From positions 128,001 to 192,000 of the forward strand of contig CAVQMM010000001.1 of NCBI GenBank assembly GCA_963713615.1: a DNA stretch of 64,000 bases, read 5' to 3'. Shown piece after piece: positions 2,119 to 63,362 of the stretch. A model generated the notes under the pieces. The model saw nothing but the letters and a program-made list of their open reading frames with translations. It did no database searches and was not told the origin of the DNA. The DNA is from an uncultured Chlamydiae bacterium (GTDB taxonomy: Bacteria; Chlamydiota; Chlamydiia; Chlamydiales; JAJFMA01). Made by a program: the position numbers and the translations under genes. Every line of letters starts with the position of its first letter. Positions within the stretch are counted from its first letter, which is position 1.

Positions 2119-2342
2119 GGCCTTGTTCACCTCTTCGGTCAGTTTTCGGCCTTGTTCACCTTTGCGGTCAGTTTTCGGTCGACTGCAAAAGGATCGTCTG
2201 TCGCGTTTTGCTCCTCGGACATAGCTGGCGCTATGCCCTCGTCACAAACCACGACATCCGACCTTTTTCGTCCGACCGAAATTCTGACCGTAAAGGTGAA
2301 CAAGGCCCAGTTTTCGGTCGGACGAAAAAGGTGAACAAGGCC
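2119..2342. mobile_element. 56-bp minimal family B element containing a nested full 160-bp copy
   Basis: Outer ends GGCCTTGTTCACC / GGTGAACAAGGCC; TGGTTAGA at 2110-2117 and 2343-2350 (one extra A at 2118). Confidence 0.85.
2148..2307. mobile_element. 160-bp MITE, subfamily B1
   Basis: TIR GGCCTTGTTCACCTTT; 8-bp duplication CAGTTTTC at 2140-2147 and 2308-2315; near-identical to three other copies. Confidence 0.95.
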
Positions 2343-2467
2343 TGGTTAGATTTGGTGCATTTGACTGCGCAAGGTATACCAAACATAAGACTCTGATCAT
2401 TGTTTTGTTTATTTAAAAGGACCCTGCGTCTATGATATTGAAACAATAATTCAATATTGGTAGGCGC

Positions 2468-4909
2468 ATGAACAGAATAGATTTAAATTTAAGTAGATGC
2501 GCCTCAGTTGATTATTCTTTTCCAAACGAACTAATCGCAAACATAGAAGAGGATTTTTGCAAATTATCCCAAGATGATTATAATGACTCTCGCCTGACTC
2601 GGAAGGGAACGAGCCTAATAAATTATTTTAAAAACAATCTTTCGGGTTTGAGCGACTATTTGGTTGCCAGGGCACCTCCCATTGGATCAACTCTCGGGCA
2701 GGCATTAAAAGCCGCAATTTCAGAGTCTGCCCGGCTTTCGTTGATTAAGCAGTTGAAAACCGGTTTCACAAAGGGAGATGAAGCGGAGCGCCGCTCGGCT
2801 CTAGTAGTGCTTGAAGGGCTAATGGGCATCCCTCAATTTGGCGACATCCTAAAGGAATGGTTGCAAACTGAATCTAGCGATGCTTGGGAAGCTATCGTAA
2901 CTTATGTTGGCAATACAATACTCCAATACGAATTGTGGGCGATGTCGGATGCTGAGGAGTTCTGTCAGGGCACCAAAGAGCAACTAAGGCGAGAGGCCTA
3001 TTTAGGTTGTGTTCTAGAACCTGTAGCAGCCCACTTACCGGATGATCTCTTGAAGTCTTTATATAAGATGCTACGTTTCCATAGCTCATCCTTAGGCCGA
3101 ATGCACTTGGCGGTTGAACCGTCTCAATGGAAACGCATTCTTCTACCAATGGCAAAGGGGACGCCGGAAATATGCCTTTCCGTAGGTACTTGGGCTTTTC
3201 TTGTGCCTTTTCAGTACCGCTTGAAAAAGATTGTATCCGAGCTTGTTAGTCTCCCATACCCACCGTTTCTTCAACTGCAAGCGCTTTCCTCACAGGTTTA
3301 CCAACAAGATGAAGGCCTGGGAACCGAACTTTGGTCGTTGATCTGTCAAGAATTAGATTTGGATATTTTTCTTACTATGTACGACGCTAGACAAGACCTC
3401 AGTATAGTGCCCGAATCATGGCAAATGGATGCACTTGCCAAAAGCATCGATCAAAACACATTGCTGTCGCGCTGTCGTAGCGAACTTGAGAAGCCCAGGA
3501 TTTCCGTATTTGTTCTATTGTTTATAAAACATATTTTGCGAGGAGATATCTGTACCGAAGAGGATCGCTTGAGGATAGAGAAGCACTTCTCACGGGTATC
3601 AGTGATGCAAGATCCAGCAACATTTCTGATCCTATTTGTGATGATGGCTCGGGATCATCAGCCATGTGCTCTCGACCGGTGTTTTAAAGAATTATACAGT
3701 CCAGTCACAGGGGGGAAGGTAGCCCTCTATTGTGATGGAATATATCGTCAGAATGCCGACTTAGGAATCGATTTTATTACAAAAATTGCCAAGTCGGACA
3801 AACTCACTAAAGACGGAACTTTCGTCTTAATGGTTATTATGTCCAACCCTATCCTGCGCCGAACGCTGATGGAGGAGATTTCCCCTCAGCTTTTTGATGA
3901 GCTAAAGTTTCTAATTACGGATCTTTTTGTGCCTCGGGTGAGTGTGTCCCCCAATCTTGAGGACGTAAGGTTACAACTAGATCTTCAAAATCAGCGCTAT
4001 GAACAAGGCGGGAAATGGTCTGCTGCGATGACCACTGAACAGTTTCGCACTGTAATCGACACTGTTCTTGTAATGGCTAAGAAACAAGGTTGGTCAAACG
4101 GGAAGTTTCCCGATGCCACCCTTAAGCTCTGGGAACCCGCCCTTAGGAAATACCTGGTACCTGAGAGGGGAAATCCAACTAGGGAAGCTGTCGATAAGCT
4201 CTACTACTTTTCTTGGAGGTGCAATGAATCTCCTATACAGCGTATCCCGATAAGTGCTTTAGAAATGGCAGCCTGGTTGGCGGCGGTATACCCTACGAAA
4301 GTGAATCTCGAATCATTCGCAAAATATTATCTCGATAGGAAGCTTGGTGCAACCTGGGATCAATCGACAATAGCGCAACATCGCGACAAACAACGTGGGG
4401 GTGCCTTAGTGGACCTCATGGCGGGTGTTTCAAGCTATAAAAATCAATTTTTTGATGAATGGCTAAATTATGTGAAGAGTCGACCCACCTGCTTACCGTT
4501 GCTTGTCAAAGGCCTTGCGAAACAACAGTTTGAGCGCCTTATACAATCTGTAGGGGTTAAGAAACTGCAGTCAATCCGGTCTTGCTTGACGCAAGAGCAA
4601 CAAGACCTTTTGGATCTACCTATTCCTCAGGAGCCGCCAAGAGCCGCTTTGACCTACCAGCAGGCCACAGGAACATTCTTTAATGCCTATCATTCCATTT
4701 ATGAGCTGGACCATTTATTACAGCTTTTACAACATGAGCCTGGACCTGAGTTAGAGGGCGTAATAAAGTGGCAAGAGCGCCTAGCACAGGGGCGAGACTA
4801 TATTGTGCGACGAGAGAAAATGGACAAGCTGCTGAATAGTGCTATCTACGATCTATCCAACCGAGAAATCCTGCCACCGCCATCACCTGAGCTTAATGCC
4901 CTTGAATAA
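2468..4909 (+). CDS. Hypothetical protein (813 aa, Leu-rich, probably helical; effector candidate)
   Basis: Long ORF with AT-rich upstream region; no motif recognised. Confidence 0.8.
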   Translation: MNRIDLNLSRCASVDYSFPNELIANIEEDFCKLSQDDYNDSRLTRKGTSLINYFKNNLSGLSDYLVARAPPIGSTLGQALKAAISESARLSLIKQLKTGFTKGDEAERRSALVVLEGLMGIPQFGDILKEWLQTESSDAWEAIVTYVGNTILQYELWAMSDAEEFCQGTKEQLRREAYLGCVLEPVAAHLPDDLLKSLYKMLRFHSSSLGRMHLAVEPSQWKRILLPMAKGTPEICLSVGTWAFLVPFQYRLKKIVSELVSLPYPPFLQLQALSSQVYQQDEGLGTELWSLICQELDLDIFLTMYDARQDLSIVPESWQMDALAKSIDQNTLLSRCRSELEKPRISVFVLLFIKHILRGDICTEEDRLRIEKHFSRVSVMQDPATFLILFVMMARDHQPCALDRCFKELYSPVTGGKVALYCDGIYRQNADLGIDFITKIAKSDKLTKDGTFVLMVIMSNPILRRTLMEEISPQLFDELKFLITDLFVPRVSVSPNLEDVRLQLDLQNQRYEQGGKWSAAMTTEQFRTVIDTVLVMAKKQGWSNGKFPDATLKLWEPALRKYLVPERGNPTREAVDKLYYFSWRCNESPIQRIPISALEMAAWLAAVYPTKVNLESFAKYYLDRKLGATWDQSTIAQHRDKQRGGALVDLMAGVSSYKNQFFDEWLNYVKSRPTCLPLLVKGLAKQQFERLIQSVGVKKLQSIRSCLTQEQQDLLDLPIPQEPPRAALTYQQATGTFFNAYHSIYELDHLLQLLQHEPGPELEGVIKWQERLAQGRDYIVRREKMDKLLNSAIYDLSNREILPPPSPELNALE

Positions 4910-62280: not shown

Positions 62281-62952
62281 TCAAACTCCTTTCGTTTCTG
62301 GCAACCAGATGAACTTGTGAATCTGTAAGTTTAGGCGAACGGGTAACTTGTCCTCAAGTATCCAACTGACTAACTCCCTTGGATCTAGCAGACCAAATAC
62401 TGGCGATAAGAGAACAGTGTTGACGCGCTTGGAAAGTTCGTATTGTTTACACACGTCTGCGGCGTAACAATAATCAAGGCGGTCAGCTACAACGAATTTG
62501 ACCTCATCGTGTTTACGGAGAATATTCAAATTGGGCCAATAGTTCTTTTCCGCCATACCGCTGCCGGGACATTTAATGTCTAGGATAACGTTTACCTTGG
62601 GGTCGACTTTGGAGGTCGATAACGAGCCTCCGGTTTCAAGACTGACAACATATCCTAATTCACACAGATGTTGTAGCAAGAGCAGGCAACCCTCTTGCAA
62701 GAGAGGTTCTCCACCGGTGACACAGACATATTTGAGGCCATAGGCTTCGACTTTTTCAACCAGAGCTTTGATGGTCCACGGGGTACCCCGACCGAATGAA
62801 TAGGCTGTATCGCACCAGGTGCAACGTAGGTTGCAGGCCGCCAAACGAATAAATGTAGTGGGGCAGCCAGTGAAAGAGGTTTCTCCCTGAACGCTGGCGA
62901 ATACCTCGATAATGTTTAACAAGTGTGTAACACTGAGATCAACCGAATTCAT
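62281..62952 (-). CDS. queE: 7-carboxy-7-deazaguanine synthase (radical SAM)
   Basis: EVFASVQGE, CNLRCTWCDT, TGGEPL, LQIHK; start set at ATG 62952. Confidence 0.95.
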   Translation of the reverse strand: MNSVDLSVTHLLNIIEVFASVQGETSFTGCPTTFIRLAACNLRCTWCDTAYSFGRGTPWTIKALVEKVEAYGLKYVCVTGGEPLLQEGCLLLLQHLCELGYVVSLETGGSLSTSKVDPKVNVILDIKCPGSGMAEKNYWPNLNILRKHDEVKFVVADRLDYCYAADVCKQYELSKRVNTVLLSPVFGLLDPRELVSWILEDKLPVRLNLQIHKFIWLPETKGV

Positions 62953-63205
62953 TGTTAAGGGCTCCTGCTGCAAAAAACTGCGTTAAGTATAGAGAAATAT
63001 TACTTAAAATGTTAGAAATTTCCGAGTTGTGAACCACATACAATATCACAATCCAGAGCTTCGTGCGAAGAGCTTTAGTGTTATATCCCCGAATGAGGCC
63101 CCAACCGACTGCTCTGCCCTACCATAGGCTCCGTTGTGATACGCTGTTGCGCATTAAGGCGGTGCGACATAATATCATAGTATAATATTGCAAGAGCCAA
63201 AGTAG

Positions 63206-63362
63206 GTACCTCCTCAAAAAGTTATGGCAGATCATGCCTTAGCGAGGCGAGTCAGGTTGTTGGGATCGCGACGAGGGCATAGCGTCAGCTATGTTCGAGG
63301 AGAGAGACAACAAAATGACCGCCGCAGCAAGGCAGAATCGGCATAACTTTTTGAGGACGTAC
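63206..63362. mobile_element. 157-bp MITE, subfamily B3 (same core, different TIRs)
   Basis: TIR GTACCTCCTCAAAAAGTTATG / CATAACTTTTTGAGGACGTAC; 8-bp duplication CAAAGTAG at 63198-63205 and 63363-63370. Confidence 0.9.

Follow-up and report, generated by a model that had tools for sequence, protein, structure and literature searches.

The stretch of DNA analyzed here, referred to below as the window, comprises 64,000 bp from an uncultured Chlamydiae bacterium (contig C1, positions 128001-192000, of genome G000, which spans 3.97 Mb in three contigs and is 99.1% complete). It contains six short repeats that an earlier note, made from the sequence alone, had placed in one superfamily (B1, B2 and B3) of MITEs (miniature inverted-repeat transposable elements). 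Alignment of the six stretches with 20-bp flanks bore out their coordinates, lengths and orientation and all six exact 8-bp target duplications. Reading of the sequence at 2090-2480 added a seventh element that the note had overlooked, a 56-bp mini-derivative around the copy that we call B1a. As described below, B1 has the same ends as a resident insertion sequence (IS) that encodes a DUF6399 protein, predicted to be a DDE transposase, and the ends of B2 match a second, internally deleted subfamily of this IS. The elements are as follows, in window positions except for the last:

2119..2342 (2119-2147 and 2316-2342), plus strand: older mini-MITE of 56 bp with two GGCCTTGTTCACC ends, split by B1a; the nesting is read directly from the sequence
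2148..2307, plus strand: B1a, B1 MITE copy of 160 bp nested in the mini-MITE; 100% match over 160 bp; duplication CAGTTTTC at 2140-2147 and 2308-2315
15255..15414, plus strand: B2 MITE copy of 160 bp, sitting in another repeat family; duplication AGGAAATT at 15247-15254 and 15415-15422
36966..37125, plus strand: B1b, B1 MITE copy of 160 bp with the majority sequence; duplication CTCTTTTC
45926..46085, plus strand: B1 MITE copy of 160 bp, intergenic; duplication TGGGAATT
57925..58084, plus strand: B1 MITE copy of 160 bp, intergenic; last base T instead of C; duplication GATTTTAC
63206..63362, plus strand: B3 MITE of 157 bp with IS66-type ends (GTACCTCCTCAAAAAGTTATG); positions 46-97 homologous to B1; duplication CAAAGTAG
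C1:1035800-1037682 (contig positions, about 844 kb beyond the window end): intact DUF6399 IS of 1,883 bp; duplication CTCAAAGG

The four B1 copies in the window lie in one orientation and have identical interiors, with differences confined to element positions 7 and 10 and to the last base of the copy at 57925. B2 has ends of the same GGCCTTGTTC type as B1. The ends of B3 (GTACCTCCTC and GTACGTCCTC) differ from those of B1 and B2, and B3 is therefore not a GGCC-ended element. The mini-MITE is flanked by TGGTTAGA at 2110-2117 and 2343-2350, the left side being offset by one base. The window MITEs are short (157-160 bp), non-coding and all intergenic; the only open reading frames (ORFs) that overlap them are read-throughs of 117-127 amino acids. 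B1 and B2 are full-length hairpins with GGCCTTRTTCACC ends. B1b folds as a whole-length DNA hairpin at -49.4 kcal/mol (z -9.3), and B3 also folds as a DNA hairpin, at -46.1 kcal/mol (z -10.7).

Copies, target duplications and empty sites

Genome-wide BLASTN, with overlapping matches merged, gave 162 loci: 117 full and 26 partial for B1, 13 full and 2 partial for B2, and 2 full and 2 partial for B3. The full copies total 132, in keeping with the earlier note's expectation of many copies genome-wide; four of them are on contig C3, which had no match in PLSDB. Nine further mini-derivatives of 54-67 bp lie elsewhere in the genome, with an 8-bp duplication in three of the nine if a 1-bp shift of the ends is allowed. 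The tabulation of flanking duplications that the note had proposed showed that most copies do carry them: an exact 8-bp duplication flanks 112 of the 132 full copies, while one has a duplication of 9 bp, three have one mismatch, and 16 have none. Random re-pairing of left and right flanks among the 132 copies yielded no matches in 184 of 200 shuffles and a maximum of two; the 8-bp duplications are far beyond chance.

Empty sites provide direct support for these duplications. Intergenic DNA proved too diverged between same-genus genomes (the flanks of the 36966 copy matched nothing in G001 or G003 and, in G002, repeats alone), and the test therefore turned to paralogous sites of the genome itself. 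Sites were accepted if both flanks were at least 40 bp long and at least 90% identical, the alignments reached the junction and the site was uninterrupted. For 25 MITE copies inside other repeats, the flanks overlapped by exactly 8 bp at 177 of 177 uninterrupted paralogous sites, among them 74 sites for the B2 copy of the window and two for the copy at 36966. Insertion was thus shown to duplicate exactly 8 bp of an AT-rich, weakly palindromic target (C-W6-G): among the 112 sites, position 1 is C in 55 and position 8 is G in 52, and A+T makes up 67%. Reconstructed insertion sites fell in open frames of at least 200 amino acids in 26% of cases, compared with 78% of random positions. Furthermore, 80 of the 117 copies of B1 are identical, as are 10 of the 13 copies of B2; this points to a recent burst and agrees with the note's view of non-autonomous elements spread recently by transposition. 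B1, B2 and B3 end in inverted repeats and make target duplications of one length, and they are a real, recently active MITE family of an ordinary kind.

In metagenome contigs from peat, the MITE has a word depth of 44-79 compared with 2-3 for its flanks, and contigs break exactly at 36966 and 37125. None of the metagenome contigs from four runs joins the flanks of the 36966 copy without the MITE, which says nothing about present-day polymorphism. A contig from an RNA library covers the MITE, which does not show transcription.

The DUF6399 insertion sequence

The genome was scanned for inverted GGCCTTGTTC-type ends (at most one mismatch) no more than 10 kb apart and bounded by an exact 8-bp duplication. 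Beyond the MITEs, two pairs were found, one of 5,345 bp and one of 1,883 bp. The former, which has the same 8-mer on both sides, was rejected as a composite transposon: the two MITEs that delimit it share identical flanks of at least 60 bp on each side, so the copies at C1:3502697 and C1:3507882 are a segmental duplicate. Nine 34-bp "end pairs" were also rejected as elements, being parts of another repeat with constant flanks. The 1,883-bp pair is the one coding element with an exact duplication, and the note's expectation that the enzyme would be encoded elsewhere in the genome was borne out to this extent by the search it had proposed, for a gene bounded by MITE-type ends. This IS interrupts another repeat, of which an uninterrupted paralogue shows an 8-bp overlap, and a single ORF of 559 amino acids (C1:1035974-1037653) fills it end to end. 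Its first 16 of 16 nucleotides equal those of B1, and about 31 of the 35 nucleotides of the B1 arm match, including the subterminal TTTCGGTC. The genome also has an interrupted, truncated second copy of 99.6-99.8% identity. A diverged subfamily is present in two copies (ISb and ISc; 1,574 and 1,587 bp) with 64% amino acid identity, in both of which residues from about 264 to 358 are missing; at the left end, 15 of 15 nucleotides agree with the B2 end. Hence, each MITE subfamily matches an IS subfamily of its own. These two internally deleted elements, at C1:1063388-1064974 and 1074398-1075971, are 9.4 kb apart in opposite orientation, and their outer flanks are reverse complements (GCGGCGTC and GACGCCGC), which hints at an inverted duplication or an inversion.

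The 559-amino-acid protein matches Pfam PF19936 (DUF6399) over its C-terminal part at 141.5 bits, compared with a gathering cut-off of 35.4. Beyond this, Pfam gave only weak helix-turn-helix matches (at E up to 1, it lists five families for the protein in all), and NCBIfam transposase models gave no match at E up to 0.1. In an alignment of 48 relatives, all 48 of which match PF19936, residues D166, E167, D221, H243, E473, G474, R475 and N476 are invariant and D240 is nearly so. The AlphaFold2 model (pLDDT, the predicted local confidence, 89.5; pTM, the predicted template-modelling score, 0.83) begins with a helical N-terminus, followed by strands at 159-170, 173-180 and 186-191, a helix, a strand at 213-220, another helix and a strand at 236-239. 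An all-helical insertion then occupies 241-462, and a helix follows at 470-486. The order is that of an RNase-H fold: D166 lies on strand 1, D221 immediately follows strand 4, and a late helix past the insertion bears E473. Foldseek placed Hermes (hAT) first (E 8e-5), followed by ISCth4 (IS256 family), with a global template-modelling score (TM) of only about 0.3. An exhaustive VIA-align search matched retroviral integrase cores at Z 13-14.6, with 128-142 residues aligned within model residues 155-522 at a root-mean-square deviation of 2.6-2.9. The same search aligned 331 residues with Hermes (Z 12.6) and 256 with ISCth4 (Z 12.3). The protein is predicted from this model to be a DDE transposase, with an RNase-H-like core and an all-helical insertion, in which D166, D221 and E473 would have the catalytic roles.

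Relatives of this protein are numerous and rarely named. One search found at least 1,563 homologues, and an exhaustive one found 1,627 representative clusters at E up to 0.001. Most homologues lie on contigs of about 2 kb; their names are "hypothetical protein" or "DUF6399," with one "transposase." Seven homologues looked up by cluster at NCBI had "hypothetical protein" as their sole name, five of the six RefSeq plasmid records with a match read "DUF6399 domain-containing protein," and a full-text literature search for DUF6399 or PF19936 found no paper. In species-representative genomes, 392 loci encode relatives, in Chlamydiae, Chromatiaceae, Planctomycetota, Desulfobacterota, Chloroflexota and others. 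Multi-copy DUF6399 elements in five genomes have shared blocks of 1,815-1,959 bp, which begin GGCCTTG(A/T/C)TC in four of the five. Four of these sets (12 copies) come from other phyla, namely from Desulfosarcina, Thiohalocapsa, Planctomycetia and Gammaproteobacteria metagenome-assembled genomes (MAGs), and their duplications are of 8 bp in five copies (two of two in Desulfosarcina, two of four in Thiohalocapsa, one in Gammaproteobacteria) and of 9 bp in six (four of four in Planctomycetia and one each in Thiohalocapsa and Gammaproteobacteria), while one Thiohalocapsa copy has none. A single ORF within GGCCTTG inverted repeats and an 8-9-bp duplication is thus found both here and in the four sets, and since these features recur in other phyla, both the end motif and the length of the duplication are properties of the DUF6399 family itself. 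In the fifth set, from a Chlamydiae MAG (loci L063, L064 and L069), the ends are GGCCATTTTC (GGCCATTTTCATAAC) and none of the three copies has a clear duplication; either the true ends lie elsewhere or this DUF6399 branch behaves differently.

Some named transposases resemble the DUF6399 protein in architecture. The resident ISL3 element (3 identical copies; ends GGTTCTTGGG, GGTTCTTGGGAAG) also has GG-start ends and an 8-bp duplication (TATAAATT at copy 1). The model of its transposase has the same order of strands and helices, and its motifs D-E, D, DxxH and E-G-x-N follow one another as in the DUF6399 protein, at residue numbers that nearly coincide (D166 E167, D220, D241..H244 and E373 G374 N376 in ISL3; D166 E167, D221, D240..H243 and E473 G474 N476 in the DUF6399 protein). 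It differs in that its helical insertion (242-365) has about 125 residues rather than about 220, and in its zinc/beta N-terminal domain, in contrast to the helical helix-turn-helix of the DUF6399 protein. ISCth4 is the top structural match of the ISL3 model and is among the top matches of the DUF6399 model too. In a protein atlas, the nearest named clusters carry PF01610 (17% and 65% of members), and ISL3, Mutator or IS66 domains mark the neighbours that lie beyond PF19936 (scores of 0.96-0.86), which is a lead only. Neither PF01610 (DDE_Tnp_ISL3) nor the NCBIfam ISL3 model matched the 559-amino-acid protein, and hhalign of the DUF6399 profile gave a probability of 0.2% against one ISL3 sequence and 0.9% against a 6-sequence ISL3 profile, which stayed shallow because the homologue search for deepening it listed only proteins at least 69% identical. 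Hermes (hAT) and ISCth4 (IS256/Mutator) are the best matches among solved structures and have an RNase-H core split by an all-helical insertion; hAT and IS256/Mutator enzymes have a [C/D]xxH motif after the second Asp and make 8-9-bp duplications. Unlike these, the DUF6399 protein has no listed BED, hAT-dimerisation or Transposase_mut domain, and its element is prokaryotic with long subterminal inverted repeats. Given the lack of support from profiles, we class the protein as working like an ISL3/IS256/hAT-type DDE enzyme and as a member of none of these families.

Taken together, we consider it likely, with a probability of roughly 0.8, that the predicted DDE transposase of this 1.9-kb IS, the 559-amino-acid DUF6399 protein, moves the 160-bp palindromic MITEs B1 and B2 in trans by cut and paste. 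The N-terminal helix-turn-helix of the protein would bind the ends of about 35 bp common to IS and MITE, including TTTCGGTC, and D166, D221 and E473 on the RNase-H fold would catalyse cleavage and strand transfer with an 8-bp stagger. The single intact DUF6399 gene would then have driven the burst of identical B1 copies.

IS66-type ends on a shared hairpin body

The term superfamily held for B1, B2 and B3 in one respect, as their central bodies are homologous, and failed in another, as the ends of B3 are of IS66 type. The terminal 24 bp of B3 match the ends of elements of 1,226 bp and 933 bp at about 20 of 24 positions. These longer elements are deletion derivatives that carry IS66-family transposase fragments (PF03050, E 8e-7), so B3 would be moved by an IS66-type enzyme. 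B3-type ends (GTACNTCC; GTACGTCCTTAAAAA) start with GTA, as in IS66, and have nothing in common with GGCCTTGTTC. A duplication flanks both full B3 copies and one of the two copies of 109-110 bp; an IS66 group in this genome, with ends that differ from those of B3, has exact 8-bp duplications in two of three examined copies. B3 is unlike IS66 in that its interior is homologous to the DUF6399-type MITEs and that the same-ended elements found are only deleted derivatives. Positions 46-97 of B3 align collinearly with positions 46-97 of B1, on the opposite strand, and over its central 33 bp B3 has 94-97% identity with 117 copies of B1 (E 1e-7 to 1e-8). The homology of these central 52 bp with B1 and B2 would mean that a hairpin body was re-fitted with other ends.

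At the centre of B1 (window 37030-37070), and likewise in B2 and B3, the hairpin has an apex with the short stem CATAGC-N4-GCTATG. It is flanked by CCTCG-type motifs (GAGGAG or GAGGG on the opposite strand) that are direct rather than inverted and are predicted to be unpaired. In this genome the core does not occur outside B1, B2 and B3. A degenerate core pattern (21 fixed bases, at most one mismatch) was present in 4 of 401 sampled genomes of the phylum, and the reversed pattern, used as a control, had no matches. The matches number 130 in this genome, 24 in G002, 14 in G263 and 2 in G241. In G263, which belongs to another family, they lie in 160-bp MITEs with GGCCATGTTCACC ends, and in G241 they stand under a third kind of end. 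Of three same-genus genomes, G002 alone contains elements 70-75% identical to B1, and the 27 other genomes of a first sample contain none. The G002 MITEs keep their ends, with exact duplications in two and one or two mismatches in three of six examined copies, and are older insertions. Arm pairing is kept across the diverged subfamilies, with double changes in 38 of 61 pairs, a count inflated by two flipped alignment rows; arm-to-arm copying or a need for the hairpin may account for it. In the few cases available, an apex kept while the ends differ suggests exchange of terminal repeats.

Other repeats abound in this DNA. With the strict filter, MITE flanks inside repeats find as many as 74 uninterrupted paralogues, and a single 80-bp flank as many as 295 BLAST matches across the genome, which is unusually rich in repeats. 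The 40 matches to the IS66 DDE domain belong to three or more groups of elements, of about 2.9, 2.86 and 2.4 kb; together with the three ISL3 copies, this is a heavy IS load for a genome of this phylum, in which sampled relatives have 0.8-3.6 Mb. In the window itself, other short palindromic repeat families (D2, D4-D8) lie at 157-466, 11224-11703 and 49118-49395, and runs of a 9-bp unit (GGACNAAAG-like; family D3) at 20353-20410 and 52311-52359, 32 kb apart. G+C is 0.38-0.43 at 40001-48000 compared with about 0.47 elsewhere, and an ORF of 1,891 amino acids (30590-36265, minus strand) ends about 700 bp from the MITE at 36966.

Rival mechanisms and significance

The earlier note had attributed the MITEs to an IS1595-family transposase of the ISPna2 group, encoded elsewhere and acting on GGCCTTGTTCACC ends. 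The end consensus of that group is GGCnnTG, which the GGCCTTG ends of B1 and B2 fit, and IS1595 elements are about 1 kb long, unlike the 1,883-bp IS. One report of the family states that its members usually make 8-bp duplications, as B1 and B2 do, and calls the DDE_Tnp_IS1595 domain diagnostic (PMC8101967). This domain (PF12762), present in 16 of the 301 genomes sampled from the phylum, has no match in the present genome, for all its 99.1% completeness, or in the three same-genus genomes. The DUF6399 protein, with its helical insertion of about 220 amino acids and an all-helical N-terminus in the model, matches neither DDE_Tnp_IS1595 nor Zn_Tnp_IS1595 at E up to 1, and hhalign of its profile against five chlamydial IS1595 transposases gave a probability of 0.8%, over 26 helix-turn-helix columns only. 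As the domains are absent and the profile comparison is negative, the end motif and the 8 bp are a coincidence or a very distant echo rather than a sign of membership. The note had made the link depend on a partner from that family, and the long element with these ends and this duplication encodes a DUF6399 protein instead; an IS1595 enzyme is now highly improbable. A different resident transposase (ISL3, IS66 or an unrecognised one) might instead move B1 and B2, with the DUF6399 protein as a passenger or a DNA-binding accessory. The genome does hold three ISL3 copies and 40 IS66 DDE matches, the enzymatic role of DUF6399 is a prediction, and there are MITE-bearing draft genomes in which no DUF6399 gene was detected. 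This alternative is nonetheless unlikely, given that the ends of ISL3 (GGTTCTTGGGAAG) and IS66 (GTGTCCC, GTAAGCG) are unlike those of B1, which means that the resident ISL3 cannot be the partner; that one long ORF fills the IS end to end; that the protein has a confidently predicted RNase-H DDE fold with invariant acidic residues; and that the same unit of ORF and GGCCTTG ends is multi-copy with 8-9-bp duplications in unrelated phyla.

It is also very improbable that the repeats were never transposed, and instead spread by duplication or recombination or are structured-RNA or repetitive extragenic palindromic (REP)-type elements. Whole-length hairpins (z -9.3 and -10.7), the kept arm pairing, the two copies within one segmental duplication and the 16 copies without a duplication could all be read in this way. 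Against this stand the precision of the ends, 8-bp duplications that differ at almost all copies and the 177 empty sites; the search of the window with Rfam at gathering threshold gave no matches, the count of double changes is inflated, and long identical flanks between copies were seen in one instance only. For B3, the same length class, the same 8-bp duplication and the collinear, nearly identical core would fit movement by the DUF6399 enzyme of B1 and B2, in one true superfamily despite the ends, but this is quite unlikely in view of the match of its terminal 24 bp to IS66 derivatives with the PF03050 fragment, and of IS66 elements here making 8-bp duplications likewise.

Several observations weigh against the DUF6399 enzyme as the partner of B1 and B2 and an IS66-type enzyme as that of B3. 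Ten of the 16 full copies that have no duplication are identical to the reference copy, and the flanks are mostly unique. Among the 17 copies with at least two flank mismatches, a search for reciprocal flank exchange or inversion gave no 8-mer match, direct or reverse complement; deletions between direct copies would fit the duplication-less copies. There is just one intact DUF6399 gene, the other copies being interrupted, truncated or without about residues 264-358. Sequence profiles link the protein to none of the named transposase families, and its transposition activity and catalytic residues are predictions. Related MITEs occur in three other genomes without a DUF6399 match, but these are drafts, so this is not evidence of absence (the gene was searched for in G001-G003, G263 and G241, with no match; G002 is 94% complete in 290 contigs and G263 93% in 90 contigs). 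As for B3, no intact IS66 element with matching ends was found in the genome, its resident intact IS66 groups having other ends.

Correia/NEMIS, RUP and Nezha are bacterial MITEs derived from DDE insertion sequences. A census of such MITEs has been published (PMC11602168). B1 and B2 resemble such elements in being mostly intergenic and hairpin-forming with ends shared with a resident IS, and also in being short and non-coding with terminal inverted repeats, a fixed-length duplication and many near-identical copies. They differ in that Pfam, NCBIfam and PGAP records do not label the transposase of their likely partner as one, and in that their hairpin body also occurs in a MITE with the ends of another IS family (B3). 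A broader reading, which we regard as possible but rather doubtful, is that DUF6399 proteins are the transposases of a widespread unnamed prokaryotic IS family in the DxxH/helical-insertion clade (ISL3, IS256/Mutator, hAT), and that a modular palindromic MITE chassis (apex ATAGC-N4-GCTAT, CCTCG direct repeats) stands under three unrelated end types, namely the DUF6399 type, the IS66 type in B3 and a third in G241. If true, hairpin MITEs would survive by swapping terminal repeats and so switching transposase, and the shared body under different terminal repeats is a small testable lead on such changes of partner. The case of IS1595 illustrates that an end motif and a duplication length (GGCnnTG and 8 bp) are insufficient for placing an element in an IS family. 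As MITEs, B1, B2 and B3 are ordinary, and the value of the finding lies in their unannotated partner family. The ends, the 8-bp duplications, the empty sites and the burst of 80 identical copies are in-genome evidence for DUF6399 as a predicted active transposase, and recognition of DUF6399 as such would let annotation pipelines rename these genes and recognise their insertion sequences and MITEs.

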